Source of the DNA: an uncultured Gammaproteobacteria bacterium | Lineage (GTDB): Bacteria; Patescibacteriota; Microgenomatia; UBA10105; UBA927 | Reading direction: 5' to 3' | Assembly: GCA_964609895.1 (NCBI GenBank) | Contig: CAZSTG010000004.1 | Span: 16,288-80,287 of the forward strand | Length of the DNA stretch: 64,000 nucleotides | Shown: positions 23,130-53,625 of the stretch, one piece after another | Layout: each line of letters starts with the position of its first letter | How positions within the stretch are numbered: the stretch's first letter is position 1 | Position numbers and translations under genes: made by a program | The notes under the pieces: model-generated | What the model was told of the DNA's origin: nothing | Database searches by the model: none | Seen by the model: the letters and a program-made list of their open reading frames with translations, nothing else

Positions 23130-23136
23130 CGTTTGT

Positions 23137-26070: not shown

Positions 26071-27123
26071 CTATATCCTCAACTTCTTTGTCGGATGCGC
26101 GATTGCATGATACAACACACTTACGCAAAGCGTTGCAACAAAAGACAGGAGTAAACGAATGCCATATCCCAGATGAAAAGAAACGCCCACATGCTCCAAA
26201 AAAAACCGTATTATTGGCAGCTGAAACATAATAAATTCAAAACTAATGGCGCCAAGAAACAGAAAAATGTTTTTAGATAACAGCCAAGAAACTGAACCTC
26301 TGGCATAGGCAAAAAGCAACAGACATATACTCACGCTTGGCAGAAAAAACATGCTAAAACGGTATGCATCGGGAACATATTCCGCCAGAAAAATACTCAT
26401 TCCTAGAATACTTATGCTCTCCAGTTCTAGCACGGTTGCTATCCGGCGGGTAAAATGTTTCGTCATTGGATGAGATACAAAAAAAACGTATAACAGCATC
26501 CCTGTTACAAACTCGAATATTTTCGAAAATGGCGATATATATAAAAAATACGCCGCGTGACGCACACCAAAAAAATAGATGATGAAAAATTCTATCATCC
26601 AAAGCAATAAAATTGTTGACCATGAATGAAATCGATAGATGACCCGCAAGAGAAAGGGGAACGCTATCCAGCAAAAAATTAACGAGGATAAACTCCAAGC
26701 AACAGAATTAAAGGAATAGGCATATTGCAGTGAAGGAATATACGATTGCAGTAACAGCAGATTCGCTATCAACATGCTCCAAAATCGTTCTCCATATTCA
26801 TGAACAACAAAAGGAATGGTTATTCCCAACGTTAACAGGTGCAGGGGAAGAATTCGTTTCAGACGTTTGAGGCCATATGTTCCCCAATCAAACGTATGTG
26901 TTTGCAAACGCCACTGATAATTTGCCGTCAGTAAAAAACCGGAAAGAATAAAAAACGCGGTCGTCCCCGCATACCCATATGCAAGAAGCGGCATTTCTAG
27001 CAGATTAATAAAGGGGATCGCGCGAAATAACAGTGTATGATTTAAAAAAATAGCGATAGCTGCAAAAAAACGAATGGAAGTAAGCGGCAGTATACGATGA
27101 AAACTTTTTTCCAACACGCGCAT
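26071..27123 (-). CDS. acyltransferase family 3 (OafA/YrhL-like) integral membrane O-acyltransferase
   Basis: 350 aa with about 10 TM segments. N-terminal LTSIRFFAAIAIFLNH signature. Confidence 0.6.
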   Translation of the reverse strand: MRVLEKSFHRILPLTSIRFFAAIAIFLNHTLLFRAIPFINLLEMPLLAYGYAGTTAFFILSGFLLTANYQWRLQTHTFDWGTYGLKRLKRILPLHLLTLGITIPFVVHEYGERFWSMLIANLLLLQSYIPSLQYAYSFNSVAWSLSSLIFCWIAFPFLLRVIYRFHSWSTILLLWMIEFFIIYFFGVRHAAYFLYISPFSKIFEFVTGMLLYVFFVSHPMTKHFTRRIATVLELESISILGMSIFLAEYVPDAYRFSMFFLPSVSICLLLFAYARGSVSWLLSKNIFLFLGAISFEFIMFQLPIIRFFLEHVGVSFHLGYGIRLLLSFVATLCVSVLYHAIAHPTKKLRI

Positions 27124-27142
27124 AGTTCTTCTTAATCATTTG

Positions 27143-27844
27143 TTAAGACACATGTTTCTCTTTCGATTCCGACACAACTTTTCCCTTCTCCAAATGAATG
27201 ATACGTTGAAATAAATATTTAAACTTTTCTATAGTGTGCGAGCTGGCAACCACTGTTATATCCTTTTGACGAATTAAGCGCTGCAATGTCCTTTTTGTTT
27301 TTCGTCTATAATTAGCATCACCCACGTTAATCATTTCATCAAGTATCAGAATATCGGGCTCTGAATGAATGGCTATTGCAAAACCTAGCCGTAACATCAT
27401 TCCGCTTGAATACGTAAACAACGGCACATCAATAAACCTTCCTATGTCGGCATATGTAATAATTGCTGCGAGTTTCTGATCTATCTCCTTCTTCGACATA
27501 CCAAGCAACATACCGTTAATATAGATATTTTGTAGGCCGGTTAGATCACTGTGAAATCCTGCTTCAAGTCCAATAAGCGATATTATTTTCCCTTCGGTGT
27601 AAACCCGACCACGGGTCGGTGTACAGATACCGGAAAGAATTTTTAAAAGGGTCGTTTTCCCTGATCCGTTGGGACCAACGAAACCGACGCTTTCACCCTT
27701 ATGAATAGTTAAATTAATGGTGTCGAGAGCGAGAAACCGTTCGTCTTTGCCATTAATAAGTTTTTCAACAAGAGTAGGTTTTTCATGATGGATAATATAC
27801 TCTTTGGATATATGATCCAGTTTAATAGCAACAGTATTTTTCAT
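27143..27844 (-). CDS. ABC transporter ATP-binding protein (Wzt/TagH/KpsT-like glycan exporter)
   Basis: Walker A GPNGSGKTTLLKILSG. ABC signature and Walker B ILILDE. Start trimmed to MKNTVAIKLDHISKEY at 27842-27844. Confidence 0.8.
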   Translation of the reverse strand: MKNTVAIKLDHISKEYIIHHEKPTLVEKLINGKDERFLALDTINLTIHKGESVGFVGPNGSGKTTLLKILSGICTPTRGRVYTEGKIISLIGLEAGFHSDLTGLQNIYINGMLLGMSKKEIDQKLAAIITYADIGRFIDVPLFTYSSGMMLRLGFAIAIHSEPDILILDEMINVGDANYRRKTKRTLQRLIRQKDITVVASSHTIEKFKYLFQRIIHLEKGKVVSESKEKHVS

Positions 27845-27848
27845 AGTA

Positions 27849-28616
27849 TTAAATCCAATCATCAAAATTTTTACTCTCTCTCCGAAAGATAAGAATGCCA
27901 AGTGCCGCTATCAAAACAATCAGAGCACTATTTATCTGAAGCATCCGAGAACTCGGAAAAGGCAGGTTTAAAAAACTGTGCTGCAATATAAGAACAATAG
28001 ACGTCATGGGATTAAAATTCCATAAAAAAAGTAATCGTTCTGGAATAACAGACAGGGTATACACAATGGGTGTCGCGTAGAACCACACGGTAAGGAGTGC
28101 TTGAGTAAAAAATGCGACATCACGATATTTTACATGAAGGGCACTTGTCAGAAGACTTAAGCCGGTAGTAAAAACCAACAATAGTATGAGTGCAAAAAAC
28201 AGACTCGGCAGCCTTGCAATAACCTCAAATCCGCCTACTGTTGCGATAATTCCCAATATAAAAAGCGCTAATAAAAAATTAAAAAAATCTGCTAAAATGA
28301 TGGACATCGGAATTACTTCTCTAGGAAAAGCTGCTTTTTTTACCAAAGACCGTTCGTGGACAATGCATTGAGTCGTCTTAGAAAGGGAAATATTAAAAAA
28401 CCCCCATGCCAATAATCCCGTAAACAAATAATAATACTGATTTTGTATTTGCTGCTTAAAAATAAACTGGAAAATAAACCCGATGACAAGCATCTGCAGC
28501 ACTGGATTAATCACCATCCATAAAAAACCAAAAGCTGTATGTTTATAACGTACACGCAATTCTTTATCCGTTAAAGTAAATAACAGTGATATAAAATACC
28601 GTAAGCGCTTCATCAT
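27849..28616 (-). CDS. ABC-2 type transporter permease (Wzm/TagG-like)
   Basis: 6 TM segments. Sits immediately upstream of the ATPase. Start trimmed to MMKRLRYF (track ORF extends to 28676). Confidence 0.7.
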   Translation of the reverse strand: MMKRLRYFISLLFTLTDKELRVRYKHTAFGFLWMVINPVLQMLVIGFIFQFIFKQQIQNQYYYLFTGLLAWGFFNISLSKTTQCIVHERSLVKKAAFPREVIPMSIILADFFNFLLALFILGIIATVGGFEVIARLPSLFFALILLLVFTTGLSLLTSALHVKYRDVAFFTQALLTVWFYATPIVYTLSVIPERLLFLWNFNPMTSIVLILQHSFLNLPFPSSRMLQINSALIVLIAALGILIFRRESKNFDDWI

Positions 28617-28658
28617 CAAGGGGATTATACTACATACTGTTCCTTTTTTGTCTATGGT

Positions 28659-29267
28659 ATGATAAGAAAAACGCATTCCAACAATGAATATATGACTGCT
28701 GTATCACCACACATTTCAGTCTATAAAAGACCTCCCAAACAGATACATGAACAAATTAAACAACTCGGTTATATTTGTTTTGCTAACAAAAAACTAAGTG
28801 AAGTAGAACAGAAAATAAATCAAGACCAGATAACGGCAGATAAACCAGAAAAAGTTATAGTTGCAGTGGAAAATGGCGCGCTTCTTGGAAGAATAAAAAT
28901 ATTCAAAAGAGCTTCAGTATTTGATAACACCCGTATCACTATTGGAGGAATAGGTGGAGTCTGTGTGGAACCACATGTGAGAAATCAGGGAATCGGTTCT
29001 CGTTTACTCCGCGCCGCTTTGGTGGAAATCAAAAAAAGTAATGTTGATATTGCTCTCCTTCTTGTTGATTCTAAGAACAAAAAGGCAATTTCACTGTATC
29101 AAAAATTTGGCTTCACCCTCTTACAAAATAACGTTCTCTACACGGGTAAATCAGGAACACTATATACACAAAAAGGTGCGATGATAGCACCAATACGATC
29201 CAATAACATATACTCCAAGATATGCACCGTAAAAATCCCTGTACATATCGGTTGTGGTAATTTTTAA
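28659..29267 (+). CDS. GNAT family N-acetyltransferase
   Basis: 202 aa. Acetyl-CoA-binding motif GGVCVEPHVRNQGIGSRLLRAAL. Confidence 0.7.
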   Translation: MIRKTHSNNEYMTAVSPHISVYKRPPKQIHEQIKQLGYICFANKKLSEVEQKINQDQITADKPEKVIVAVENGALLGRIKIFKRASVFDNTRITIGGIGGVCVEPHVRNQGIGSRLLRAALVEIKKSNVDIALLLVDSKNKKAISLYQKFGFTLLQNNVLYTGKSGTLYTQKGAMIAPIRSNNIYSKICTVKIPVHIGCGNF

Positions 29268-29317
29268 TTACTTGCTATACTACTAGCACTCTGCCACCAA
29301 CAAATACGCTGCTCCTT

Positions 29318-30289
29318 GTGCGATATAATACATTGCTTATGTATCAGCTCCAATTACTAAAAACCACGATTGCAAATGGCTTTCTTCATGTTGTCATACG
29401 GCTTACTCCACCAATATATGCAAAAAAATATTCCAAAACCACTGGCATAATAACAAAAATTGGGCATAAGTATATAACAATGTATATATTGATGATGAAG
29501 ACGTTTGTGTTCTTTTCTAAACTCTCGCTTGCCACCTGTGTCATTGATGATGGAACATTGACAAAACACGACAAACAAGTTCTTGCAAAACACGTCAGAA
29601 ATATTCGCATCATCAGTGCTTCTGCCGGTCTGAAAGCGGTAAAAAAAATAAAAACAAGATACCCATATATATATAGATACCGCATGGAGACTCATCCAGA
29701 TCTATTTACCCACAACACATGTCTATATGATCTTACGCAGTTGTCAGGATTTAAAAAATTTATTATTCTTGACGCGGATATAGTTTTTTTTAAAAAACCG
29801 ACAACCATTATTAATTGGGTGAATTCAAAAAATGAGCGCACGTATTATATGGCGTTTCCATCCAGCTATCTGTACGCAACAAGTGGATGGGGGAGAATAA
29901 TCCTACAGATTTTTTCCACACTTTGGAAATCAGATATTCCTGTGTTATTTAATGACGGTATTATTTGTGGATATAAGCACTGGTTTACATTAGACGTGCT
30001 CGAGCGACATACGAAAATGGTCTATGCGTATGGATTGCAACATTCTTGGATCAGTCTTATTCTTATCTGGTCAGGCATCTTTTTGCATTTTTCTAAAAAC
30101 CCAAAAACTCCAATCTCACCGCTTCCGGCAGTACACTATGGCATTTTAACTGTAAAAACGCTCCAGTCTCGTCTTAGAAACGCCGTGTTCTCCTATACGT
30201 GTCTACATTATATCGGCCCATTTAAAAACCTGTATCTACCATTGGACGCATATAAGCTATTTATTTCTTACTGCACACATAATCTATGA
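29318..30289 (+). CDS. hypothetical protein, tandem paralog A of uncharacterised DxD family (putative nucleotide-sugar transferase)
   Basis: 323 aa. Shares motifs with the next gene: DDGTLTKHDK / DDGTLTTKDK, ILDADIVFFKKPTTIINW / LLDSDVLFFSRPTAIIDW, and CLHY / IHYH near the C-terminus. Confidence 0.45.
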   Translation: MRYNTLLMYQLQLLKTTIANGFLHVVIRLTPPIYAKKYSKTTGIITKIGHKYITMYILMMKTFVFFSKLSLATCVIDDGTLTKHDKQVLAKHVRNIRIISASAGLKAVKKIKTRYPYIYRYRMETHPDLFTHNTCLYDLTQLSGFKKFIILDADIVFFKKPTTIINWVNSKNERTYYMAFPSSYLYATSGWGRIILQIFSTLWKSDIPVLFNDGIICGYKHWFTLDVLERHTKMVYAYGLQHSWISLILIWSGIFLHFSKNPKTPISPLPAVHYGILTVKTLQSRLRNAVFSYTCLHYIGPFKNLYLPLDAYKLFISYCTHNL

Positions 30290-31227
30290 ACATGGTACTC
30301 AAAAACACAAGGCAAAAACTGATAAAAACGCTTGTGTATCTTCTGTTGCAATGTACAAAACCGGTTGTACTTAATCAAACACAATATAATGTGTCATTTT
30401 GCTCCATGGTGTCTCATAATCATCTCCTCCTCTATATAGTCGCTATCAAATCGTTCATCTATTGGTCACATCTCCATCTGCCAGCAATGATTGTTGATGA
30501 TGGAACACTGACAACAAAAGATAAAGCACTGCTTACTTATCACCTGAAACATTGCCTTGTTATATCAAAAAAAACAGCGGATAAAAAAGCAAAACGGGAG
30601 CTTCGGGCTTATCCTCATTGTCTCACATACAGATTAGATACAACTCACGACATCGAAACACATAATCAAAAATTATTTGACCCTTTTTTATTGTGTCGAA
30701 CGGACTATTTCATTCTTTTGGATTCTGATGTCCTATTCTTTTCCCGCCCCACTGCAATCATTGATTGGATCAAAAGCGACAAAAAACATTTTGTGTATAT
30801 GCAATATAACCCCTTGTATATACAGACATGCAACACATGGGGAATGCTAACAATGAAAATTTTTGCAAAGCTCGTTGGAAATCCAAGTGCAGTTAAACTC
30901 AATTCCGGACTCGTATGCGGCAAAACGTCATTATTTTCACTTGCGAAAGCTGAGCAACTTTGCGCTGCCTATTTTACCTACAGATTAAACCGTACTTGGT
31001 TGGGAGATCAGCCGGTTCTTGCACAGATATTCCTGTCTGAAAAAAAATCAGTCACTAAAAAATCCGGCTTACCAAGCGATACGTTTTGCATACTCACAGA
31101 TGCCAATATGAGAAAAAACTTGTGGAAAAAGGCGTGTATCCACTATCATACAGGCATAAATAAACATCTTTGTTTTATAGACAGTATTCGCTTATTGCTG
31201 AAAACTCAGCTTTTTACAAAATCATAG
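30286..31227 (+). CDS. hypothetical protein, tandem paralog B of the same DxD family
   Basis: 313 aa. ATGA overlap with paralog A. Roughly 30 percent identity to it by eye over the full length. Confidence 0.45.
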   Translation: MNMVLKNTRQKLIKTLVYLLLQCTKPVVLNQTQYNVSFCSMVSHNHLLLYIVAIKSFIYWSHLHLPAMIVDDGTLTTKDKALLTYHLKHCLVISKKTADKKAKRELRAYPHCLTYRLDTTHDIETHNQKLFDPFLLCRTDYFILLDSDVLFFSRPTAIIDWIKSDKKHFVYMQYNPLYIQTCNTWGMLTMKIFAKLVGNPSAVKLNSGLVCGKTSLFSLAKAEQLCAAYFTYRLNRTWLGDQPVLAQIFLSEKKSVTKKSGLPSDTFCILTDANMRKNLWKKACIHYHTGINKHLCFIDSIRLLLKTQLFTKS

Positions 31228-31232
31228 AGTAA

Positions 31233-31979
31233 TTGACAGTATTACATATGAAACACCAATATAGTAATTTTGTCATTCTTACGACACAAAGAACAGGTTC
31301 TACCTATATTGCGCATCTGTTGGATTCCCATCCGTCCGTCGTATCTTATGGCGAAATATTCCACCGGTTCGGCGTTGGTTGGGGAAGCAGGACACAGCGC
31401 ACAAACACGAGGTGGTTATTCTATATGCGCAACATCTTTCCCATCGTGTTTCTCAACACGCAGGTGTTTCATGCATATCCGTCAAACATTCGTGCTGTCG
31501 GTTTTAAACTGATGTACGGTCAAGCTACCCGTTTTCCGTCAGTTCTGCGGTACCTTGCAAATCAGCAAAGTACTATTATTTTTCTCAACCGCAAAAACCT
31601 ACTCGAGTCACTCGTATCACTCAAACGCGCGCAGTATTCCCGTATTTGGACTCTCAAATCAGCATCGGAAAAACCAGCAATCCACATATATATAGATGAA
31701 CAGGAGTGTCTCAATTATTTTATGGAGACGGATTGTCTTCATCGGCAATTCTGTGCGTATTTCAAAAAAAACCCTTCCATGCAGATATATTATGAGGACG
31801 TGTGTCAGAAAGGGACGCATGGACTTGATGCGGTGCAGCGTTTTTTGGCAATCCCCAGAAAACCGCTCTCTTCTCCAATTACAAAACTGAGAGGAGCTCC
31901 GCTAGAGGAAACGGTAGTAAATTACTTCGAGTTGAAAAAAAAGTTTTCCAAAACGAAATGGGCATCATTTTTTCCATGA
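31233..31979 (+). CDS. putative sulfotransferase (Stf0/Sulfotransfer_3-like PAPS-binding N-terminus)
   Basis: N-terminal motif NFVILTTQRTGSTYIAHLL resembles the 5'-PSB loop (x-R-[ST]-G-S-T) of Stf0-type carbohydrate sulfotransferases. About 245 aa. Confidence 0.45.
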   Translation: MTVLHMKHQYSNFVILTTQRTGSTYIAHLLDSHPSVVSYGEIFHRFGVGWGSRTQRTNTRWLFYMRNIFPIVFLNTQVFHAYPSNIRAVGFKLMYGQATRFPSVLRYLANQQSTIIFLNRKNLLESLVSLKRAQYSRIWTLKSASEKPAIHIYIDEQECLNYFMETDCLHRQFCAYFKKNPSMQIYYEDVCQKGTHGLDAVQRFLAIPRKPLSSPITKLRGAPLEETVVNYFELKKKFSKTKWASFFP

Positions 31980-33022
31980 AACGCATTTTATATATATCAT
32001 CGACAGACGAATCAGCTTCCATCCAAAATACGGAAAGAAGAAAGGCTTTGTTGCAGGAGCTCGGTTTTTCCGTCACTCTGTATACGTCAAAACAACAGGG
32101 TCTTTCGGAACTGCTGCAGTTGATTCCACACATACACACCTATACCATGCTCTATATACGTATTGACGGATCCTGTCGCCTTGACAAATTCAGCTTTCTC
32201 AAACTTATTCGTCCTTCACTCAGAATCGTTTGGGAAATTCATGGATTTCCGGAAGAAAATGATAGAAACAGCCACAGTGCACGTACTCATGGGCTCAGTG
32301 CGATCAAGAGACTGGTATATTCCGCATGTGCAAACGGGTATGTTTTTGTCTCTGAAGAGTTGCAGCAATATGCAAAGAAAAAAATACTTCGGCGTCCTCA
32401 AACCGTCATTCCAAATTTTATTCCGTCCGGTTTCAAACAATCCTTTAAACATACGCCGTCCAAAACCCTTAGGTCAAAAGGCACATCGCTTCGATATGTT
32501 TTATGGACCGGCAATGGAGCGTATCCGTGGCATGCGCTCGATATACTCGAACAGGTGGCAAAACTGTCTTACCGGCGCAATAAACATATTCGGTTTATAG
32601 TAATTTCCCCATATCTTTGGCATACGTTTTCCTGGTATCGGAATATCCTGTTTATCGCAGGGGCTCCCAATACCGTGGTACAGAAGTATATTGGGCAAAG
32701 TGATGTGTGTCTTGCGCTGTATCACAAACCGCCCGCATGCCCGTTTTATTTTTCTCCGTTGAAAATTCTCGACTATATGATCAACAAAAAACCTGTTATT
32801 GCAACAGGGTTAGGGCAAATAAACACAGTAATAGCCGATGGGATTAACGGGTATGTCACGGATAATGAGCCTGAAGACATCGTGGAAAAAATTCAGTATC
32901 TCATAACTCACCCTAAGGAAAGAACCGCGATGGGGGATAAGGGGTATGATACCATCACTTGCCAAAGGTCATATGCTAAGGCAAAAAAAGCGTATCAGGC
33001 ATTTTTTAATAAAATATGGTAA
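31958..33022 (+). CDS. glycosyltransferase family 4 (GT-B fold)
   Basis: C-terminal GT4 signature KKPVIATGLGQINTVIADGINGYV. Confidence 0.65.
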   Translation: MGIIFSMKRILYISSTDESASIQNTERRKALLQELGFSVTLYTSKQQGLSELLQLIPHIHTYTMLYIRIDGSCRLDKFSFLKLIRPSLRIVWEIHGFPEENDRNSHSARTHGLSAIKRLVYSACANGYVFVSEELQQYAKKKILRRPQTVIPNFIPSGFKQSFKHTPSKTLRSKGTSLRYVLWTGNGAYPWHALDILEQVAKLSYRRNKHIRFIVISPYLWHTFSWYRNILFIAGAPNTVVQKYIGQSDVCLALYHKPPACPFYFSPLKILDYMINKKPVIATGLGQINTVIADGINGYVTDNEPEDIVEKIQYLITHPKERTAMGDKGYDTITCQRSYAKAKKAYQAFFNKIW

Positions 33023-34236: not shown

Positions 34237-34314
34237 AACTGTCACAGGGAGAGCTTCCATGATATACTATACTATTGAATTTGAGCGTATATACAATCTT
34301 TGTTGTAACACACT

Positions 34315-36174: not shown

Positions 36175-36189
36175 AAACAGCACATACCT

Positions 36190-37131: not shown

Positions 37132-37146
37132 TCAAGAGAGAGATAT

Positions 37147-38268: not shown

Positions 38269-38355
38269 GGTTTGACAAATACCCTGCTTCTCTTTATCAT
38301 AAGCATACGCTGTGCGGGTGATATCGCACACTTTTTTTATAACGTATTATCACGT

Positions 38356-39648: not shown

Positions 39649-39761
39649 AACGAAAAAGCCTAATAATGATCATACTATAGCGTATTGGGGATGACTTGGA
39701 CAATATGACGTGCCCTTTTATCGGAAAAGCCGTACAATGAATCAATCTGTGACCCATAGAC

Positions 39762-41835: not shown

Positions 41836-41896
41836 TTTTGTTGTTATAAAAAGAAAACATTGTTACAATAAAGGCCAACTTGTCCCGAAAATCACT

Positions 41897-44007: not shown

Positions 44008-44751
44008 CGAGCACACCTTCCGGACGGCTGATCGAACAATAAACCATAGTGTATATACTGCTATAACCACATACCGTTTGCCAAGACGTTGTGGCTCTTG
44101 CATAAAACGAAAAAACCACTCCAAACCGGATGCCCTCATCCATGCGGGCGCCTGTTTTTTTATACCGGAAATAAAATCAAAGGCAGCGCCGACACCAATA
44201 GATACATTGGCGTAAATATGTTGTTTTGCGAAAAACATCCACTGTTCTTGTTTTGGCGTGCTTAAACCGACAAACACAATCTGCGCTTTCGATGTATTCA
44301 CTAAGGTATATATTTTCTGAAGTTCCGCCTTGGAAAATGGGGCAAGGGGAGGAGCATAGACACCCGCGATAATAAGCTTCGGAAAAATTTTTTTCAGCTG
44401 AAATGAAAGGTGGGTAAGTGTTGCCTGAGTGGTGCCAAAGAGAAAGATTCTCATGTTGTTTTGTTCCGCCATTGCACACACTCGCAACATAAAATCGGGT
44501 CCGTATATTCGGGTAACATGCGGCCGCCCCATCAACTTCCCCATCCACACAAGCGGCATGCCGTCGCAAACGGTTGCGCTTGCCGTGTTCAGTATCCGTT
44601 GAAATGCGCTGTTGCGCTGAGCTTCAACCACGCCGTGCAGACTTGTAAGACATATATAGGTATGTCTATTGTGTTGCACCATTTTCCGTATCCGCTCGAC
44701 CAGCTTCCCGGACGGAGAATCAAAAAAACGGATACCAAGTGTAGTAAACAT
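43993..44751 (-). CDS. WecB/TagA/CpsF family glycosyltransferase (GT26; ManNAc/ManNAcA-type transferase acting on lipid-linked acceptor)
   Basis: 252 aa. MRIFLFGTT...VFVGLSTPKQEQWM signature. Confidence 0.75.
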   Translation of the reverse strand: MFTTLGIRFFDSPSGKLVERIRKMVQHNRHTYICLTSLHGVVEAQRNSAFQRILNTASATVCDGMPLVWMGKLMGRPHVTRIYGPDFMLRVCAMAEQNNMRIFLFGTTQATLTHLSFQLKKIFPKLIIAGVYAPPLAPFSKAELQKIYTLVNTSKAQIVFVGLSTPKQEQWMFFAKQHIYANVSIGVGAAFDFISGIKKQAPAWMRASGLEWFFRFMQEPQRLGKRYVVIAVYTLWFIVRSAVRKVCSLLRV

Positions 44752-44754
44752 ACA

Positions 44755-45705
44755 TCAGATAAAATATTGATATGGTTTCGTATATAATGGCCACCTTGCT
44801 TGAATAGAAATTCTTTTCCGTTTTATTACGCTCCACAAACGGATAACTTCTCTATATGCATGAAAAGAACTTCTCTCAAACACAATCGTATAGAGAAAAA
44901 TACCAATATCATAAAATATGATAGCCGGCGCATCCCGTAAAAAAAACGGTACCGCGTCGTTTTTTAATAACAACAGATATCTGTTGCGGAGACCAAGCAG
45001 TCTCAGCTGTGGGGAAACGTTCTTTCTTTGACCAGAACGGAAGGTTCGTATGTGCCACGCAACAGCACGCGGAACAAACAGGGAAATCCAACCCGCGCGC
45101 TGTGCCCTCCATGCAACATCCACATCCTCTTTGTGCATAAAAAAATCCTCATCAAATATTTCTTTCTCGATGGCGATATCTTCCAGCATTATTCTCCGAT
45201 AAAACGCGGCCGCTCCGTCGGGACCAAAAATACGACCACCTGCCAACGGGTGTATTTTTTCGCCTTCGTGACACAATCCCTGCCTTCTGTTTTTTCTCAT
45301 AAACAGCCCCGCTCCATCTATGGCAAACGGTTTTATGTCCATCCCATCTGTTCTTAGAAGCAACCCCGCCGCAGAACCGGCCTGCGGATTTTGATCAAGT
45401 GCCACCACCATGGTTTTCAAAAAATCCGGCTTCAGAAAAACATCAGGGTTCAAGGTAAGAACGTATGTGCTTTTTGTTAAACGCAGTGCTTGATTGTGAG
45501 CAGCCGCGTAACCGACGTTATGCTTGTTATGATGCACCACAACAAATGGAAATGATTTACAGATGGAAACAGTCTTGTCCGACGATGCGTTGTCAACAAT
45601 ATGAACAGAAAAATCCGTATATGTCTGTTGCGATAAACACAGAAGACACTTCTGTATGAGTTTTTCACTGTTATATGTGACAATATGAACAGAAACAGTT
45701 TTCAT
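44755..45705 (-). CDS. glycosyltransferase family 2
   Basis: VSVHIVTYNSEKLIQKCLLCLSQQTYTDFSVHIVDNASSD. Start trimmed to MKTVSV at 45703-45705. Confidence 0.7.
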   Translation of the reverse strand: MKTVSVHIVTYNSEKLIQKCLLCLSQQTYTDFSVHIVDNASSDKTVSICKSFPFVVVHHNKHNVGYAAAHNQALRLTKSTYVLTLNPDVFLKPDFLKTMVVALDQNPQAGSAAGLLLRTDGMDIKPFAIDGAGLFMRKNRRQGLCHEGEKIHPLAGGRIFGPDGAAAFYRRIMLEDIAIEKEIFDEDFFMHKEDVDVAWRAQRAGWISLFVPRAVAWHIRTFRSGQRKNVSPQLRLLGLRNRYLLLLKNDAVPFFLRDAPAIIFYDIGIFLYTIVFERSSFHAYREVIRLWSVIKRKRISIQARWPLYTKPYQYFI

Positions 45706-45721
45706 ATAAAAACATCTCCTG

Positions 45722-46744
45722 TTACTCCATGGCCGCAAGTATCGGCTTCATCCACCGAATATTGTAGTAAATAGGAGACGAATATCTCCTATACCGCGCG
45801 TTTCCCTGAATGGACGCTACCAGTGGCGATATTGCCTGCAAAAAACTGATGCGTGGTTTAAAATGCAGGACTTTTGCGGCTTTTTTAGTTGATACTTTAT
45901 AGGATCGGTCTGGTGTTGTGCACTGCATATATTGTTGTTTTACGGAAAAAGAAAGCTTTTTTCTAAAGAAGGAAACCACTCCGGCCGCCACTTCTTTTAC
46001 CTGATAATTGTTTTCCGCAATATTAAAAATTTCCCCCTGTATGGAAGAGGGAGGAGAACGTAATACCCGATAATACGCCTCCGCGACATCCTCAACTGCA
46101 ACAAGTGGACGCCATTGTAGCCCTCCATTATACACAACGATCTGCTTTTTTCGAAGCGCATCACTCACCATCGTATTAATAATAAGATCATACCTCATGC
46201 GGGGAGAGAAACCGTAGATTGTTCCCTTCCGCAGGATTGTCACAAAAAAACGGTTCGTGCACATTTTTAACAGCTCTTGTTCAGCTAAAAATTTGGATAG
46301 CGAATATGGATTTTTGGGAAAGACGGCGGCACTCTCGGATTGCGTCTTGTTATATTGTGGTTCCCTGTTATAGATGGAACAGCTGGAAGCAAAAATGAAG
46401 CGCCTGACTCCGGCGTGTTGTGCCATGCGTGCAACCGCGATTGTACCTTCTTTGTTTATCTGCATATTGGCAGTGGGATTAAACTCCGCTGTGGGATCGT
46501 TGGACAACGCAGCCAGATGAATAACTGCATGGACGTCGTCAAACAATCCACAAGGGGGGTTCCGGACGTCACCTTTCACAACCCGGATTTGTTTCAAAAC
46601 ACCCCGAAGAGACGCGCCGCCGAAATAAAACGAATCAAAAACTGTTATGTTATACCCACGCTGAAGGAGATAGGGAACTAAAACGGAACCGACATATCCC
46701 GCTCCTCCTGTAACAAGCACGTGCTGTTTTGTTGTTTTTTTCAT
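45722..46744 (-). CDS. NAD-dependent epimerase/dehydratase family protein (SDR, nucleotide-sugar modifying)
   Basis: VLVTGGAGYVGSVLVPYLL Rossmann motif. YxxxK catalytic dyad region. Confidence 0.7.
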   Translation of the reverse strand: MKKTTKQHVLVTGGAGYVGSVLVPYLLQRGYNITVFDSFYFGGASLRGVLKQIRVVKGDVRNPPCGLFDDVHAVIHLAALSNDPTAEFNPTANMQINKEGTIAVARMAQHAGVRRFIFASSCSIYNREPQYNKTQSESAAVFPKNPYSLSKFLAEQELLKMCTNRFFVTILRKGTIYGFSPRMRYDLIINTMVSDALRKKQIVVYNGGLQWRPLVAVEDVAEAYYRVLRSPPSSIQGEIFNIAENNYQVKEVAAGVVSFFRKKLSFSVKQQYMQCTTPDRSYKVSTKKAAKVLHFKPRISFLQAISPLVASIQGNARYRRYSSPIYYNIRWMKPILAAME

Positions 46745-46770
46745 AGAGAATTGTGCAGTGCAAGTATAAC

Positions 46771-47331
46771 TTATTCAAAAGCTGGATGCTCCAGATATGT
46801 CTTTAATGTCATTCCGTGTGTATCACGGGAAGACAAAAGCGGAGGAGTTGTTATTGGCCAGCGGACAGCAACCGCTGAATCATTCCAAAGGAGTGTGCCT
46901 TCCGCTGAAGGCGTATAATATCCCGTCTGTTTATATTGCATCTCGGCAAACGGCGAAAGCGTCAAAAAACCCAGCGCAAACCCAACAGGAACATACAGCA
47001 TTTTTTTGTTCCTTGCCGAAAGAACCGTCGCATACCATTTTCCAAATGTGGCAGATGAAACACGCAAATCCACCGCAACCTCAAATACTGAACCGAGTGT
47101 ACAGCGGACGAGTTTACCCATCGGGGCAGACATATCTTGATAATGTAAACCGCGAAGCACGCCTTTTTTAGATCTAGAATGACCCTCCTGAACAAACTCC
47201 TCGCAAAACCCAGCCTCCTGAAAAACTCTTTTATTCCACGGCTCAATAAAAAACCCGCGGGCGTCCTGAAAATATTCTATTTGAAAATTCAACAACCCTT
47301 GAAAATCGGTTGGTAAGATGGTTGTTTTCAT
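46771..47331 (-). CDS. rfbC: dTDP-4-dehydrorhamnose 3,5-epimerase
   Basis: 186 aa cupin. ...FQDARGFFIEPWN...GLHYQD... RmlC signature. Confidence 0.75.
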   Translation of the reverse strand: MKTTILPTDFQGLLNFQIEYFQDARGFFIEPWNKRVFQEAGFCEEFVQEGHSRSKKGVLRGLHYQDMSAPMGKLVRCTLGSVFEVAVDLRVSSATFGKWYATVLSARNKKMLYVPVGFALGFLTLSPFAEMQYKQTGYYTPSAEGTLLWNDSAVAVRWPITTPPLLSSRDTHGMTLKTYLEHPAFE

Positions 47332-47355
47332 TGTTGGATACTCCTAGTATATAAT

Positions 47356-48342
47356 TTGTCTAGAAGTTTTTACACATATATGATCGTTACCTGTATTATA
47401 TCAAGCGCCGGATATCCGAAAAATCTGCCCGTTCTTTCCAAATGCATCAGATCGCTTATTGTCGCAAAGACGAACAAAACAAAACTGCGGATTATTGTCA
47501 CCACAAACAATCATAAACATCTCATCGAAAAAAACAGACACATAGATCACATATGCGTCTCCCCAAAAAGCTCCGGGTTTGTGGGGATCAACAATGCTGC
47601 CGTCATAAACACGATGCGCAAAAAAAGCGATTATTATCTCATCATCAACGATGATGCGTGGGTTGACAGAAACTTTTTCCACAATTTAAACAAGACTGTT
47701 CAGATTCATCCTGAACACAAAGATATTGTTATTCCGTTCATATTTGATGGTTCCAGTACGGCTGTTGATTCCTTCGGCGTTGAATATTTTCGCACAGGCT
47801 ATCCAAAAAACGCCTCTATGGAAACCGTTCAAACCTCTCTAGCCTCTATGTCCTGTTTGTTACTAAAAACAGAATTCCTAAAAAAAATGATTTCCTCCTA
47901 TGGATATTTTCTGAATCCATTACTCACGTGGTATCTGGACGACGTTGAGTTTTCCGTTCGCGCGCTTGCACTAGGAGGAAATCTGTATAGGGACAAAACC
48001 ATCGTCGCACACCATCTTCGCACTTACACATGGGGGAGAAAAAGTTATGCTGTTATATACTACAGCTTTCGTAACCTTATTTGGGTAATACTGTTAACTT
48101 GGCCAAAACGGGTGATAATAAACAACTTGCCTCGTATTATCTGTTGGCAAATACTTACCTGTGTGTACTGTCTTCTCAAATATTCCCCGCTATTATACCC
48201 GAAAATAATTTGGGACACCTGTGTACATTGGCGCATGCTGATGAAGGAAAGAAAAAACATTCTCTCTAAATATAAAAAGATAAATGCGTTCAATGCTATG
48301 TTTTCTTCTCTTGAAATCCGTCATGATAGAGTCACGTTTTGA
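47356..48342 (+). CDS. glycosyltransferase family 2-like protein
   Basis: 328 aa. DxD-like YYLIINDDAWVD. Assignment is weaker than for the other GT2 genes. Confidence 0.45.
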   Translation: MSRSFYTYMIVTCIISSAGYPKNLPVLSKCIRSLIVAKTNKTKLRIIVTTNNHKHLIEKNRHIDHICVSPKSSGFVGINNAAVINTMRKKSDYYLIINDDAWVDRNFFHNLNKTVQIHPEHKDIVIPFIFDGSSTAVDSFGVEYFRTGYPKNASMETVQTSLASMSCLLLKTEFLKKMISSYGYFLNPLLTWYLDDVEFSVRALALGGNLYRDKTIVAHHLRTYTWGRKSYAVIYYSFRNLIWVILLTWPKRVIINNLPRIICWQILTCVYCLLKYSPLLYPKIIWDTCVHWRMLMKERKNILSKYKKINAFNAMFSSLEIRHDRVTF

Positions 48343-48452
48343 AGTGCTGTTCTGTTAATGACAGGTGAGGAAATATGCAAAAAACTGATCGGCCGGCGCC
48401 GACAGGTCTGTTCACAAATTTATAAATTGTTCAATCAATAAAACGGTGGTTC

Positions 48453-49904
48453 TTACAACCATGTAGTTATTGCCGCATAAAGAAAATAAACAAAAATAAA
48501 ATTATTTGGAGCGGTATTTTCAAACAGCCCAATAAGATAAAACATGACTAACGAGGTATAAAATGTCAACGAATAAATGATTTGTCGCTCACTCTTTTTT
48601 TTAATAGACTCACATAAAGCCGCCCTGACCCGTTTTAGTACTAAAAAATTAATGGTTATATATATAAAAATACCCAAAACACCGGTTTCAGCAAGCACGG
48701 TTAATAGATCGTTGTGAGATGAAACGGCTTCACGATCTATTTCCCTAACCTCGTTTTCTCCGAATTCGCCCGTCTTATCATAAAAATGAAGTCGAACGGG
48801 TCGCTCTACTTCATATTGATAATTCCCTGCTCCAATCCCGACAAGGGGAGAGGCTAAAAACGCCGATATTGCTTGTCCATATAAAAACGTTCTGCCGAGA
48901 GTATAAGATACATCCCTCTCTTTCTCCTTCAGCAAAAAACGGTCAATGAGGCTATATCGAAATACAAGAGAGGCAAGAATAAGAGCTCCCGCTGCAGCCA
49001 CGCCAATCGGTATTAAAATTTTTCTCAAGGTGTTAACAGAGAGCAGTTTTGTGTGTAGCAAAACGCCTGTGTAGAAAATCGAGCCAAGCAAGAAACATAA
49101 TGTTAACCAACGAAAATTTGAGATAATAAAGGAAAAGGGAATTAAAAATATTCCTGACAGAACATATATAAGATGCAGGAGTTTATGACTTTTTTTTAAA
49201 AACACTGCGGAGCCGATAAAAAATGCGTAGCTGACAACGATATCTCCCCACTGCGGGCCTCTTCCTCTGCTCAAATCCTGAGCAATACTATATGCGGCGT
49301 CCCCAAACAAAAACTTCTTCGCAAAAAGAATGGCTTGGTCTCGAAACGCCACCTGAAACAGACTAATGGCGGAAATTCCAAGAGTTGTTAAACCAATCAC
49401 ATATATGGCTCTTTTCTGTTCCTTGTCAGAAAACCTCATCAGACGGATTATAAAAAAGTGCACCGTCGCAACCAATAATAATCGGAAGCTGGTTAAGTCA
49501 AAAATGTAAGGATTTTTTAGTAAAGAAAGCGCATTGACAATAATATATCCCACCACAAGCCAATCAATTAGGCGTATCTTTTTTTGCATATGAAGCTGTT
49601 TTTTTGCCGCAAGAAAAATAAAAAGTATCAGCTCGCACACCGCGACACCCGTTGAGAGTCCAATGCTGGTTTTTGGACGAAGGGGAAGCGGAGACGAAAA
49701 AACAACAACAATTCCCAAAATGTTTTGCACAGAGATAAAAAAAAGTAAATATTCTCTTTGAATTACTGTGTCCCAAATCCGCTGAATTGTTTTAAATAGC
49801 ACCATATGACACCACCGGCGTCTGTTAGTATACCCGAACACATCCTTTTTCAAAAGCTGTTGGTCTGTGATATAAATAACAGGACACATGACAACAAAAG
49901 GCAA
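48453..49904 (-). CDS. O-antigen ligase/Wzy-like polytopic membrane protein (second copy)
   Basis: 483 aa with about 11 TM segments. Wzy_C signature ...VGIGAGNYQYE... and SHNDLLTVLAETGVLG. Start uncertain (an alternative internal ATG exists). Confidence 0.6.
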   Translation of the reverse strand: MPFVVMCPVIYITDQQLLKKDVFGYTNRRRWCHMVLFKTIQRIWDTVIQREYLLFFISVQNILGIVVVFSSPLPLRPKTSIGLSTGVAVCELILFIFLAAKKQLHMQKKIRLIDWLVVGYIIVNALSLLKNPYIFDLTSFRLLLVATVHFFIIRLMRFSDKEQKRAIYVIGLTTLGISAISLFQVAFRDQAILFAKKFLFGDAAYSIAQDLSRGRGPQWGDIVVSYAFFIGSAVFLKKSHKLLHLIYVLSGIFLIPFSFIISNFRWLTLCFLLGSIFYTGVLLHTKLLSVNTLRKILIPIGVAAAGALILASLVFRYSLIDRFLLKEKERDVSYTLGRTFLYGQAISAFLASPLVGIGAGNYQYEVERPVRLHFYDKTGEFGENEVREIDREAVSSHNDLLTVLAETGVLGIFIYITINFLVLKRVRAALCESIKKKSERQIIYSLTFYTSLVMFYLIGLFENTAPNNFIFVYFLYAAITTWL

Positions 49905-51093
49905 AACAACAACCGAAAGACTTCTTGTGTTTCACACGGAGTGTGTTTACCTGCGCGGCGGAGAAAAATATATTTATGAACACATAAAATATGCTTCCAA
50001 GCGGCGCCCCGTTATATTGTTTGTAGAAAAAATTTCTCCTTATTGGGAAAAAATTTATTTTGACCTGCGCGTTCCAGTCTTCCTTCTTTGGAAACCAAAA
50101 AAATTCTACTGGGCACTTTTGCCAATAACATTGTTTGTTAATTTTCTTAGGCTCCGGAATACTATACAAAAAGGGGACGTCATTTTTGCGTCAATTTTTC
50201 CTTTGACGTTTTTGTCTGTCTTGCTCTCTAAAAGAACGATCGTATTTTGCTTTGAACCATTAAACATTTTTTATGACAAAGTTTTTATTCGAAATCTACC
50301 GACGCGGTCACAACACATAGTGCGTTTGCTGAAGTTTCTCTACCGTCCTCTGGACTCATATGCCATTTATAACGGGGGCGCGCTAGCCACATTAAACTTG
50401 GATGTTAAAAGGGCGGTAAAAAATCAATATGGAAAATTAGCGCGTTTTTTAATTCCAAACGGAGTTGACACTTCCTTTTTTACTCCAAAAGCGACGCCTC
50501 TCTTTTCTTTTAAACGGCGGGGGAGAACCGTTATTGGACATAGCACAGACTATACGCCTCTTAAGGGAACCGAATATTTACTTCGTGCTCTTCCCAGCGT
50601 GATACGAAATAACAAATCGGTTATTGTTTTAATCTCTGAAACCATTTCCAATCCGCAAAAAAAGAAGGAATATCAACAGTTAATTAAATCACTGCGCATA
50701 CAACAGCATGTGTTCTTTGTCGGGACAATTGAACAGAAGGATCTTCCGGGCTTCTACACCTCTTGCCACATTTTTTGTTTTTGCGGGTCTTCTTTTTGCG
50801 TTGGTGCATTTACCGCAAGTCTGTCTGTTATAGAAGCGCAATCATGTGGTTTGCCTGTGTTACGCACGGCAGGAAACAGGGGAGAAATAAAAATTAACAA
50901 AACTGGTTATTTTATATATCCGGAACAAACTTTTTCCTTCTCAAAAAAAATTCTTTTAGTAACAAGGTTTTCTAAGTCAAAATTGCGGGCGATGCAAAAA
51001 CATTGCCGTCAACATGCCAAAAGCTTCGACTGGGGTCTCTCGGCGGGTGCATTACACAAAGCAATACAGTTTATTTCTCGTCAGAAAAAATAG
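49888..51093 (+). CDS. glycosyltransferase family 4
   Basis: C-terminal FFVGTIEQKDL...SVIEAQSCGLPVL GT4 motif. Confidence 0.65.
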   Translation: MTTKGKTTTERLLVFHTECVYLRGGEKYIYEHIKYASKRRPVILFVEKISPYWEKIYFDLRVPVFLLWKPKKFYWALLPITLFVNFLRLRNTIQKGDVIFASIFPLTFLSVLLSKRTIVFCFEPLNIFYDKVFIRNLPTRSQHIVRLLKFLYRPLDSYAIYNGGALATLNLDVKRAVKNQYGKLARFLIPNGVDTSFFTPKATPLFSFKRRGRTVIGHSTDYTPLKGTEYLLRALPSVIRNNKSVIVLISETISNPQKKKEYQQLIKSLRIQQHVFFVGTIEQKDLPGFYTSCHIFCFCGSSFCVGAFTASLSVIEAQSCGLPVLRTAGNRGEIKINKTGYFIYPEQTFSFSKKILLVTRFSKSKLRAMQKHCRQHAKSFDWGLSAGALHKAIQFISRQKK

Positions 51094-52030: not shown

Positions 52031-52049
52031 TGTGGATAAGTTGTCCACA
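52031..52049 (+). promoter_or_regulatory. two adjacent DnaA boxes upstream of dnaA (TGTGGATAA = perfect box on minus; TTGTCCACA one mismatch)
   Basis: 52031-52039 and 52041-52049, within 20-40 nt of the dnaA ATG at 52069. Suggests autoregulation or part of the origin. Confidence 0.6.
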
Positions 52050-53442: not shown

Positions 53443-53625
53443 AGAGTTTTCCACTTATCCACAAAACGGATTTTTTTATCAACAGAGTTATCCACACTCT
53501 TTTGTCCGTCTTTTGCTCTCGCGACCTTGCTTGTTTAGAAGATTACCGCCGTTCGTTGACAAGACACCAGAAAAATCATACACTTTTCCACGCGCATTAC
53601 TATTACTACTACTTATAGAAATAAT
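53443..53625 (+). promoter_or_regulatory. probable oriC: dnaA-dnaN intergenic region with two perfect same-orientation DnaA boxes and an AT-rich unwinding element
   Basis: TTATCCACA at 53455-53463 and 53488-53496. A weaker TTGTCCGTC at 53502-53510. AT-rich tattactactacttatagaaataat at about 53590-53623. Confidence 0.65.

Follow-up and report, generated by a model that had tools for sequence, protein, structure and literature searches.

Two swappable glycan cassettes at the ends of a conserved housekeeping gene string in DNA assigned to the Microgenomates group

Why do the genes of a protease, an exonuclease and a UMP kinase stand in the middle of a dense cluster of surface-glycan genes? The question is raised by positions 26071–51093 of a 64-kb stretch of DNA from an uncultivated bacterium (the window). 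A preliminary description had taken these housekeeping genes to be embedded among the glycan genes, possibly because surface glycans are central to the organism. A different arrangement was shown by assignments of families and folds, by the mosaic structure and synteny, and by the swapping of modules between relatives. The interval is a conserved housekeeping string, TyrRS–FtsH–5'-3' exonuclease–glycosyltransferase (GT) of family GT4–UMP kinase (PyrH), with two swappable glycan cassettes plugged into its ends, cassette A (26071–34236) and cassette B (39058–51093). The housekeeping genes came to lie inside the island through insertion into an old string, and not through functional integration. 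The remark in the same description that the region is not one tidy island holds, as there are two cassettes on a conserved gene string.

The 64-kb window and the ±10-kb neighbourhoods of its relatives were covered, and genes called absent below are absent from those stretches; about 54 open reading frames (ORFs) of the window were scanned for Pfam domains. Relatives were retrieved through pattern searches, a method biased to close homologs. The homologous loci and genomes compared with the window are labelled L002–L005, L045, L082–L083 and L085–L090, and L002 is the closest relative. One 17-kb contig from the public run SRR8925774 matched part of the window with 100% identity. Among genomes that carry the GT4 at 37147 of the window, the closest were metagenome-assembled genomes labelled Microgenomates group, Gottesmanbacteria, Levy(i)bacteria, Woesebacteria and Shapirobacteria, and based on these labels the window is assigned to an uncultivated member of the Microgenomates group, Patescibacteria/candidate phyla radiation (CPR). 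Typical CPR features in the window were an ATP-dependent DNA ligase, a DUF4012 protein and genes resembling a type IV secretion system (T4SS).

The ORF map gave 26071 and 51093 as true ORF ends. The interval holds 25 genes, including 12 glycosyl/phosphoglycosyl transferases, an ABC exporter pair and one Wzy_C protein, and in addition an O-acyltransferase, a GNAT protein, a borderline sulfotransferase and four nucleotide-sugar enzymes. With the 12 transferases, the exporter pair, five sugar-modifying enzymes and Wzy_C counted among the 25 genes, this density is far beyond chance. The interval had been described as dense in surface-glycan genes, and profile searches with Pfam found every family that had been named in its place. 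The archaeal-type UMP kinase, RmlC, GT26 (with a superfamily model) and FtsH scored above the curated NCBIfam cutoffs, and three ORFs without a Pfam match were recognised as more transferases, namely two tandem GT8-like paralogs and one divergent GT2.

The four backbone genes within the interval are all on the plus strand and encode the FtsH protease (34315–36174; TIGR01241, 737 bits against a cutoff of 600), a stand-alone 5'-3' exonuclease of the Pol I N-terminal type (36190–37131; PF02739 and PF01367), a cytoplasmic GT4 (37147–38268; Pfam GT4) and the archaeal-type UMP kinase PyrH, an AA_kinase protein (38272–39057; TIGR02076, 169 bits against a cutoff of 158). With the GT4 as query, tblastn confirmed homologs in 222 species genomes, and synteny was analysed in the best 80 of these loci (±10 kb, species-representative genomes), in which GT4 was 51–78% identical and held the same syntenic position. 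Upstream of GT4, the exonuclease was found in 69 of 71, FtsH in 58 of 58 and TyrRS in 46 of 51 assessable loci, and PyrH was downstream in 54 of 60. As this order is kept in nearly all 80 loci, the housekeeping genes are the old scaffold. The gap between TyrRS and FtsH has a median of 256 bp in the relatives versus 8269 bp in the window, and homologs of the glycan genes of the locus were present in just 6 of the 80 loci. A Levybacteria representative reads MurD–TGT–TyrRS–FtsH–x–exonuclease–GT4–Fpg–PyrH–RecF–NAD(P)HX dehydratase–GpsA–Fic–DNA ligase, with no glycan genes in the part from Fpg onward. The glycan cassettes are later, lineage-restricted additions at the ends of the string. The families proposed for the UMP kinase, FtsH and the exonuclease at 34.3–39.0 kb were right, but the picture of embedded core genes is reversed.

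The GT4 at 37147 had been counted among the glycosyltransferases of the island. Its 51–78% identity and its conserved position across genomes indicate that it belongs to the scaffold and not to the variable cassettes. No specific function was assigned to it: its NCBIfam matches were all far below cutoff, its best PDB matches were heterogeneous (a WbaZ-1 fragment, a pterin glucosyltransferase and a sucrose-phosphate-synthase-like protein), and the insertions beside it in Levybacteria were non-glycan genes (MFS, hydrolase, FabD-like) that gave no clue.

On the right side of the string, the synteny is broken exactly after PyrH (39057), since the block from RecF to the ligase is inverted elsewhere. 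RecF, NAD(P)HX dehydratase, Fic and ATP-dependent DNA ligase, which follow PyrH on the same strand in Levybacteria (L045:13082–19379), lie at 5505–538 on the minus strand of the window, upstream of rpmH, and likewise in L085. This points to a rearrangement with its breakpoint right after PyrH. Fpg and GpsA of the Levybacteria string were not present in the window. An origin-spanning inversion was considered for this break, and dnaA was found not to adjoin rnpA/yidC in L086 and L087. At the other end of the string, TyrRS (24675–26045) is a protein of 456 aa with a C-terminal tRNA_bind domain and 59–82% identity to Gottesmanbacteria-like relatives; the TyrRS at the same position in Levy-, Woese- and Shapirobacteria loci has 325–347 aa and 31–38% identity, which suggests either a domain gain or an in-place gene replacement.

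The right end of the interval adjoins the likely replication origin. The genes dnaA (52030) and dnaN (53626) lie at 52.0–54.7 kb, DnaA-box consensus sites are clustered at 52031–52049 (dnaA start) and 53455–53496 (three within 42 bp in the dnaA–dnaN spacer), and the cumulative GC skew has its minimum at 51–54 kb. Over the whole window, 40 DnaA-box sites with at most one mismatch were observed, with 18 expected. The likely oriC is thus about 1–2.4 kb from the end of the glycan cassette, and the backbone is about 13 kb from dnaA/oriC. Between cassette and dnaA stands a conserved right-flank gene for a DUF4330-like protein with a single transmembrane (TM) segment (51071–51922, minus strand; Pfam DUF4330, 25 bits against a gathering threshold of 27.6), followed by dnaA and dnaN. 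Its orthologs adjoin dnaA in L088–L090 with 53–65% identity.

In a small Gottesmanbacteria-like subclade, the interval from the UMP kinase to dnaA is taken up by cassette B, which was compared in five genomes (the window, L002, L088, L089 and L090). The same interval in relatives runs from PyrH to the DUF4330-like gene, dnaA, dnaN, a protein of about 330 aa, an M23 peptidase and a VirB4-like ATPase. The flanks were 75–94% identical (DnaA 87–91%, VirB4 83–92%), and the cassette B genes 35–76%. A core was shared, consisting of GT2 (39762), GT-B (40675), the GFO/DegT pair, a divergent GT2 (47356), Wzy_C (48453) and usually a small phosphoglycosyl transferase (PGT). Around it, four slots were variable: GT26 plus GT2 in the window and L089 versus one unrelated GT2 in L002, L088 and L090; RmlC plus SDR (short-chain dehydrogenase/reductase) present, or absent as in L089; GT4 (49888) with or without a methyltransferase, or absent as in L089; and, directly after PyrH, PGT versus the exporter. 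Because the flanks are conserved, modules are swapped in the same slots and the genes are more diverged than the flanks, cassette B has the sequence features of a hypervariable O-antigen/cps-type locus at a fixed address. Neighbouring genes share sequence at several convergent ends, namely 15 nt for DegT/GT26, 20 nt for GT2/GT-B and 23 nt for GT4/DUF4330-like. The alternation of strands is kept in the relatives and is unusual compared with the normally unidirectional glycan operons.

The initiator gene of cassette B (39058–39648, minus strand) encodes a protein of 196 aa that scored 169 bits with Bac_transf (PF02397) over residues 4–182 and aligned only to the C-terminal catalytic domain of the EPS_sugtrans/WbaP/WcaJ models. 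It contains LSPVF with an S-P break in the N-terminal hydrophobic helix, GLDELPQ with a DE dyad and GPRP with PRP, which we take to be the re-entrant helix, Asp-Glu dyad and PRP signatures of the PglC type. By these features it is assigned to the small PglC-type monotopic PGTs. Orthologs were present in L002, L004, L089 and L090, and no NCBIfam equivalog cutoff for a particular sugar-1-phosphate was reached.

The next core genes are a GT2 (39762–40694, plus strand; PF00535), found in all five genomes with 35–64% identity, and a GT-B glycosyltransferase (40675–41835, minus strand; Glyco_trans_1_4) with orthologs at 47–69% and a sub-threshold best NCBIfam match to TuaH (72 bits against a cutoff of 550). 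A GFO/IDH/MocA sugar dehydrogenase (41765–42904, Pfam) and a DegT-family sugar aminotransferase (42901–44007; Pfam, 369 bits) follow on the plus strand, the GFO stop overlapping the DegT start by 4 nt. GFO matched DgpA glycoside 3-oxidoreductase best in the PDB, and in NCBIfam scored 135 bits with myo-inositol 2-dehydrogenase and 114 with UDP-GlcNAc 3-dehydrogenase, both below cutoff. DegT matched GDP-perosamine synthase best (3bn1, 276 bits; WbpE 162), with all NCBIfam scores below equivalog cutoffs.

On the minus strand, the variable module consists of a WecG/TagA/CpsF-family GT26 (43993–44751; TIGR00696, 156 bits against a cutoff of 69) and the GT2 that travels with it (44755–45738; PF00535). 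This GT2 was 60% identical to its L089 partner and 24–25% identical to the GT2 at this position in L002, L088 and L090. The idea that GT26 is unique to this genome was ruled out by the same GT2–GT26 module in L089. The optional module consists of an extended SDR, an NDP-sugar epimerase/dehydratase/reductase (45722–46744, minus strand; Pfam Epimerase), for which GalE, RmlB and LegB tied at about 91–96 bits, far below cutoff, with 6vo6 as best PDB match, and RmlC, dTDP-4-dehydrorhamnose 3,5-epimerase (46771–47331, minus strand; TIGR01221, 209 bits against a cutoff of 156). A bacillosamine or 3-amino-sugar pathway was not adopted for DegT, GFO and SDR, as no equivalog cutoff was reached and the best matches diverge (perosamine synthase, LegC and WbpE; DgpA and inositol dehydrogenase; GalE, RmlB and LegB equally). 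The core protein encoded at 47356–48342 (plus strand) had no Pfam match above threshold; hhalign against a GT2 alignment (97.3% probability, E 1.6e-11) and TIGR01556 (37 bits) identified it as a divergent, rhamnosyltransferase-like GT2, with orthologs at 56–60% in all five genomes. The last gene, a variable GT4 (49888–51093, plus strand; Glycos_transf_1), was found in L088 and L090 at 46% identity, there with a methyltransferase.

Only the window and L002 have cassette A between TyrRS and FtsH, and the segment that they share has 78.5% nucleotide identity. It is an 8.2-kb insertion of partly lower GC content. The left half, which ends with the GT8-like pair and begins with the O-acyltransferase, had a GC of 0.36–0.395, with GC at third codon positions (GC3) down to 0.28, versus a GC of 0.43–0.47 in the backbone. 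A GC profile had been proposed as a way to find laterally acquired blocks. No mobile-element scars flank cassette A. There were no tRNAs at the cassette boundaries (an Rfam scan of the window found three tRNAs, all at 22.4–23.2 kb, and nothing else), no transposase and no flanking direct or inverted repeats beyond chance around the cassettes, where the sole real repeat was the tandem duplication of the GT8-like genes.

On the minus strand, cassette A carries the exporter genes and, as last gene of their unit, a membrane O-acyltransferase (26071–27123; Acyl_transf_3, PF01757, 56 bits; GC 0.395) with about 7–10 TM segments by hydropathy. A long plus-strand run starts with a GNAT N-acetyltransferase (28659–29267; Acetyltransf_1/9/7), a candidate amino-sugar N-acetylase whose GC3 of 0.276 was the lowest in the region. 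The ten plus-strand genes from GNAT to PyrH have intergenic gaps of −22 to +78 bp, which would allow their co-transcription. Two GT8-like GT-A glycosyltransferases follow, paralog 1 (29318–30289), which has no Pfam match and was recognised by its paralogy to the next gene, and paralog 2 (30286–31227), which was assigned from an AlphaFold2 model and Foldseek. They are 33% identical to each other; paralog 1 has DDG and DxD motifs, and its long ORF is supported by 88% identity to the L002 ortholog over 317 aa.

For paralog 2, 36 homolog clusters were found in 5.8e9 proteins, and PF01501 occurs in one of these clusters. Its model (predicted local distance difference test, pLDDT, 91) matched WbbM (6u4b), XXYLT1, glycogenin, LARGE1 and LgtC best, with E 1e-8 to 1e-7 and TM-scores of about 0.5–0.65, and D72, G73, D146, D148 (DxD) and H286 were invariant. 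WbbM is a polymerising GT of an ABC-dependent O-antigen pathway. From the DxD motif, the distal His and the structural likeness, the family is predicted to have a GT-A fold of the GT8 clan, and, since the window proteins did not match the Pfam GT8 model, it represents a divergent sister family of GT8. The family is very small, and its members are scattered over phyla (Omnitrophota, cyanobacteria, Chthoniobacteraceae). Of three homolog contexts inspected (L082 and L083 among them), two were glycan clusters, one of these with ABC_tran and Acyl_transf_3. The distribution of this rare family, tied to glycan clusters in several phyla, fits horizontal spread inside glycan cassettes.

The rest of the insertion is on the plus strand and encodes a borderline sulfotransferase-like protein (31233–31979), a GT-B glycosyltransferase of the GT1/GT4 type (31958–33022; Glyco_trans_1_4, Glycos_transf_1) and, as its last gene, a GT4 (33016–34236; Glycos_transf_1, 86 bits, and Glyco_transf_4). 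The sulfotransferase-like protein scored 26.3 bits with Sulfotransfer_3 (gathering threshold 27), 21.6 with Stf0 (threshold 22) and just 17 with NCBIfam Stf0, and contains a TQRTGST motif resembling the loop (5'-PSB loop) for 3'-phosphoadenosine 5'-phosphosulfate (PAPS). It is 64% identical to its L002 ortholog. No PAPS-synthesis genes were seen in the window, and for a CPR bacterium it would be unusual to sulfate a glycan.

The exporter pair consists of an ABC ATPase (27143–27901, minus strand; ABC_tran, PF00005) and an ABC-2 permease (27849–28676, minus strand, likely start 28613; ABC2_membrane, PF01061). The ATPase contains the Walker A motif GPNGSGKTT and the signature YSSGM. Its top NCBIfam models were galactan Wzt/RfbE and TagH at about 161 bits, versus 120 for DrrA, and its best PDB matches were Aquifex aeolicus Wzt (6amx, 6oih and 7k2t, 190 bits), followed by TarH (154), TagH (151 and 139) and RfbE of Mycobacterium tuberculosis (135), with ABCA as the next class at about 100 bits. 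The permease matched only galactan Wzm and KpsM in NCBIfam, and Wzm (6m96_B, 6oih_D), TarG (6jbh_C), TagG (9cfp) and M. tuberculosis Wzm (9qfx) in the PDB. The preliminary description had called the pair TagGH/Wzm-Wzt-like and had named a drug exporter as the finding that would overturn this; the nearest solved relatives are indeed Wzt/Wzm, TarGH, TagGH and mycobacterial RfbE/Wzm, and given the ranking in NCBIfam and PDB, with glycan exporters first, we reject a drug exporter. As the best relatives are glycan exporters but the equivalog cutoffs were missed (161 bits against 320–538 for the ATPase, 60 against 380 for the permease), the pair is firmly placed in the Wzm/Wzt–TagGH glycan-exporter clade by sequence, at the level of family membership. 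The ATPase has 252 aa and aligned to residues 10–226 of the 404-aa A. aeolicus Wzt; it has a nucleotide-binding domain only and no C-terminal carbohydrate-binding domain, and so represents the subtype lacking that domain.

The location of the exporter varies among relatives. It is beside PGT, after PyrH, in L004, and inside cassette B, directly after PyrH and with no separate GT set, in L005/L088. In L003 it lies between GT4 and PyrH, so that the number of different points at which glycan cassettes are inserted in the backbone is at least three. This L003 cassette (11191–19657, Gottesmanbacteria) contains an ABC permease, a methyltransferase, an ABC ATPase, a PIG-L deacetylase, a GT2, an NTP_transf_5 protein and a PMT_2 GT-C.

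Two Wzy_C proteins had been read as one polymerase route. This does not stand, as one of them (7632) is in a conserved string and the other (48453) is in the variable cassette and has a WaaL-like fold; for this reason they are not equivalent and should not be pooled. A PDB sequence search with both gave no match. The membrane protein of cassette B (48453–49904, minus strand; PF04932, 47.5 bits against a gathering threshold of 31.7) has 450 aa from its annotated start (48453–49805) and about 10 hydrophobic segments. It had 17 homolog clusters, and each context inspected was cassette B. The sole significant PDB fold match of its AlphaFold2 model (pLDDT 79.6) was WaaL (7tpg; E 1.7e-4, TM-score 0.52–0.57), with SEDS proteins next at E>0.1. 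Arg 180, 182, 232, 289, 297 and 305 and the motif H364-N-x-x-L...E373-x-G were invariant. The model supports membership of the ligase/O-oligosaccharyltransferase (O-OTase) family, and the protein is a candidate ligase or O-oligosaccharyltransferase.

A second module of the Wzx/Wzy_C type, as had been proposed, does exist. Pfam confirmed Wzy_C (7632–8891) and the Wzx-like Polysacc_synt protein (8909–10144), which sit 17–18 kb outside the interval, together with RNase H (10122–10595) and DUF4012 (10754–13267), all on the plus strand. The best 120 of 292 homolog clusters of Wzx were 44–80% identical and labelled Gottesmanbacteria or Patescibacteria. A pattern-based metagenome scan with Wzx found no relative; relatives came from a protein search and contig look-ups. 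The string rnpA–yidC–jag–...–Wzy_C–Wzx–RNase H–DUF4012–L25–TPR–HhH-GPD–SurA_N–AsxRS was present in all three relatives inspected (L085–L087), in which Wzx was 46–54% identical to that of the window. The RNase H gene always stands between the flippase and DUF4012, and L25 and a small TPR protein follow on the opposite strand. DUF4012 is a CPR-enriched family that was earlier linked to a bifidobacterial capsular/exopolysaccharide cluster (PMC6744442). From this conservation, Wzy_C (7632), Wzx and DUF4012 are a separate module that probably handles an invariant substrate, and the GT4 at 37147 probably belongs to the same separate, conserved pathway. Wzx is probably not the flippase of cassette B, to which it is poorly suited since its string is shared even with relatives of just 46–54% identity and cassette B, found only in the subclade, is hypervariable.

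How might these parts work together? The reading that we prefer, and hold at about even chances, is a glycan that is primed by the PglC-type PGT, exported by the ABC pair and then transferred by the WaaL-fold Wzy_C, with cassettes A and B acting on one glycan. We infer the following order of steps. The PGT would place a sugar-1-phosphate onto polyprenyl phosphate at the cytoplasmic face, and GT26, GT2, GT4 and GT8-like enzymes would extend the chain. Donors could be an amino sugar made via GFO and DegT, perhaps N-acetylated by GNAT, and a 6-deoxyhexose made via RmlC and SDR. Wzm/Wzt would move the finished lipid-linked glycan outward, and Wzy_C (48453) may transfer it to an acceptor, either a protein (pilin, S-layer protein) or a wall component. 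Outside the cell, the glycan would be decorated by the Acyl_transf_3 protein; the sulfotransferase-like protein may modify it as well. The two cassettes may be wired together because the exporter is inside or beside cassette B in sister genomes (L004, L005/L088), because Wzx appears too conserved for a flippase dedicated to a hypervariable glycan, and because the design is documented: Gram-positive S-layer glycan (slg) clusters of low GC combine a PGT, Wzm/Wzt, a Wzy_C O-oligosaccharyltransferase and rml genes (PMC2943079).

Several observations weigh against this reading. The four GTs of cassette A and the lack of a translocase in cis in cassette B fit two independent polymers too, and no exporter was seen within the 10 kb inspected around cassette B in L089 and L090. 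The window exporter is 50–59% identical to those of L003–L005, which is lower than for the neighbouring core genes, so that it may not be orthologous to them. The WaaL fold match, with a TM-score of about 0.5, fits a ligase, an O-oligosaccharyltransferase and a polymerase alike. Cassette B consists of at least eight units of one to four genes on alternating strands and is therefore not one operon; promoter and terminator scans over 24.5–53 kb gave counts equal to the shuffled expectation and so cannot define operons. RmlA, RmlB and RmlD were not found among the scanned window ORFs, and no acceptor protein, LCP (LytR-CpsA-Psr) ligase or PAPS pathway was seen in the window. The main rival, in essence the model of the preliminary description, has two routes, with cassette A making a self-contained ABC polymer from four GTs and decorating enzymes beside the exporter, and cassette B making a repeat unit that is flipped by Wzx (8909) in trans and polymerised by Wzy_C (48453). 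Cassette B has a PGT, 5–6 GTs and Wzy_C with no exporter in cis in the window, L002, L089 and L090, and a Wzx gene does exist in the window. PGT plus GT26 pairs also occur in Wzx/Wzy pathways, for example GumD/GumM of xanthan. However, the Wzx-like gene is 30 kb from cassette B, in a separately conserved string with its Wzy_C neighbour, and so conserved a flippase is a poor match for a variable repeat unit; in L005/L088 the exporter lies inside cassette B and no further GT set is present; cassette A lacks an initiating enzyme; no chain-length regulator (Wzz/polysaccharide co-polymerase) was found among the scanned window ORFs; and the model of Wzy_C (48453) matches WaaL only. We regard two routes as rather unlikely, though to be taken seriously.

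The wall-teichoic-acid logic of the preliminary description fares worse and is very unlikely. It would make GT26 a TagA and the ABC pair a TagGH in a TagO–TagA-primed polymer attached to peptidoglycan by LCP proteins. In its favour, GT26 scores above the cutoff of the WecG/TagA/CpsF superfamily model, TagH/TarH and TagG/TarG are relatives of the ATPase and the permease, and a Gram-positive-like envelope has been suggested for CPR bacteria (PMC6744442). But the initiator is a Bac_transf PGT and not TagO, GT26 scored 104 bits against 350 for the TarA equivalog, and Wzt/Wzm is closer than TagGH (190 versus 139–154 bits). The roughly 54 ORFs scanned include no polyprenyl-phosphate N-acetylhexosamine-1-phosphate transferase (PNPT; TagO/WecA, PF00953), Glyphos_transf (TagB/TagF), cytidylyltransferase (TagD/TarI) or LCP ligase. 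As these are missing from the window and GT26 is dispensable, its gene being missing from L002, L088 and L090, a classical teichoic acid is not supported. Least credible of all is a chance neighbourhood of unrelated transferases beside a drug or lipid exporter, a notion that can draw on the many short units on alternating strands, the GTs that mostly have no specific family assignment and the promoter and terminator scans without signal. Against it, the core set and order of cassette B are kept in five genomes, the nearest characterised relatives of the exporter are all lipid-linked glycan exporters, and an initiator, nucleotide-sugar enzymes, GTs and Wzy_C together have the logic of a complete pathway.

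None of the gene families is new, and in its architecture the locus is recognisably a variant of the ABC-dependent, O-antigen-like type. The slg clusters of Geobacillus stearothermophilus and Paenibacillus alvei (WsaP/WsfP, Wzm/Wzt, Rml, WsaB/WsfB) share the unusual pairing of a Bac_transf initiator with Wzm/Wzt, and also several GTs, rml gene(s), a Wzy_C-domain transferase, tight and partly overlapping genes, lower GC and a monoderm host. Unlike them, the locus has a minimal 196-aa PglC-type initiator instead of a 5-TM WbaP-type, only RmlC of the rml set, no identified gene for an S-layer or other acceptor, and two cassettes around housekeeping genes on alternating strands in an uncultivated CPR bacterium. 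The Klebsiella pneumoniae O2a galactan (Wzm/Wzt, WbbM/N/O) and mycobacterial galactan export (RfbD/RfbE) provide the best NCBIfam and PDB relatives of the exporter pair; Wzt there too has only the nucleotide-binding domain, WbbM is the top fold match of the GT8-like transferase, and a step after export could be carried out by the WaaL-fold protein. In those systems a WecA-type PNPT acting on GlcNAc, and not a PGT, is the primer, and their glycan is ligated to lipid A-core or built on a wall linker, whereas here there is no outer membrane or lipid A and the equivalog scores are far below cutoff.

Of the wall teichoic acid system (TagO, TagA, TagB, TagD, TagF, TagGH, LCP), the locus shares a TagA-family GT26 transferase and a TagGH-related ABC-2 exporter, but its initiator class differs, GT26 is swappable, and TagO, TagB/F, TagD and LCP are missing from the window. 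Enterobacterial O-antigen loci (galF–gnd) and streptococcal cps and rgp loci resemble cassette B in their conserved flanks (here PyrH and DUF4330-like–dnaA), mosaic modules in the same slots, cassette genes that diverge much faster than the flanks and some genes of lower GC; in the five genomes compared, the locus differs from them in its housekeeping flanks beside the replication origin and its alternating-strand units. With en bloc glycosylation in Neisseria and Campylobacter (PglL/PglB), it shares a small PglC-type PGT, DegT, an acetyltransferase, few GTs and a Wzy_C (PglL/WaaL-like) protein. Unlike there, the nearest translocase is an ABC-2 exporter and not PglF/PglK, and a di-N-acetylbacillosamine pathway is not demonstrable, as no dehydratase is assigned and the acetyltransferase is a GNAT and not a left-handed beta-helix protein.

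To our knowledge, experiments have revealed next to nothing on envelope glycans in CPR/Patescibacteria. The CPR lifestyle, with host-cell attachment and phage exposure, should depend heavily on surface structures. Rhamnose wall polysaccharides in a Patescibacterium have been proposed as a hypothesis (PMC11809585), glycosylation in Saccharibacteria has been called unexplored (PMC11623550), and no description of such a locus type in Microgenomates was found in the literature searched. A hypervariable glycan locus at a fixed UMP kinase-to-dnaA address could serve as a strain or serotype marker in metagenomes, and the widely conserved envelope-glycan genes, GT4 (37147) and Wzy_C–Wzx–DUF4012, are candidates for essential functions. 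A more speculative extension, which we consider improbable, is a two-tier envelope glycoconjugate analogous to core plus O-antigen in a monoderm CPR cell, with an invariant part made by GT4 (37147) and Wzy_C (7632)–Wzx (8909)–DUF4012 and a variable part made by the oriC-proximal cassettes and attached by Wzy_C (48453). If so, how these episymbiont-like organisms recognise, or are recognised by, hosts, phages or partners would be governed by the variable part, which may be O-acylated or sulfated.

Two further groups of genes lie elsewhere in the window. A gene for a XerC/D-type tyrosine recombinase adjoins a DivIC-like gene and a small tRNA cluster at 21102–23209; no evidence was found in the window that links this recombinase to the glycan cassettes. 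The cluster consists of two tRNA-Met and one tRNA-Trp. A T4SS-like set at 55739–61837 on the minus strand encodes a 726-aa M23 peptidase, a VirB4/TraG P-loop ATPase, a TraC-like protein and a PrgI-family protein. This set is kept beside dnaN in L088–L090, with the same 83–92% identity of VirB4.

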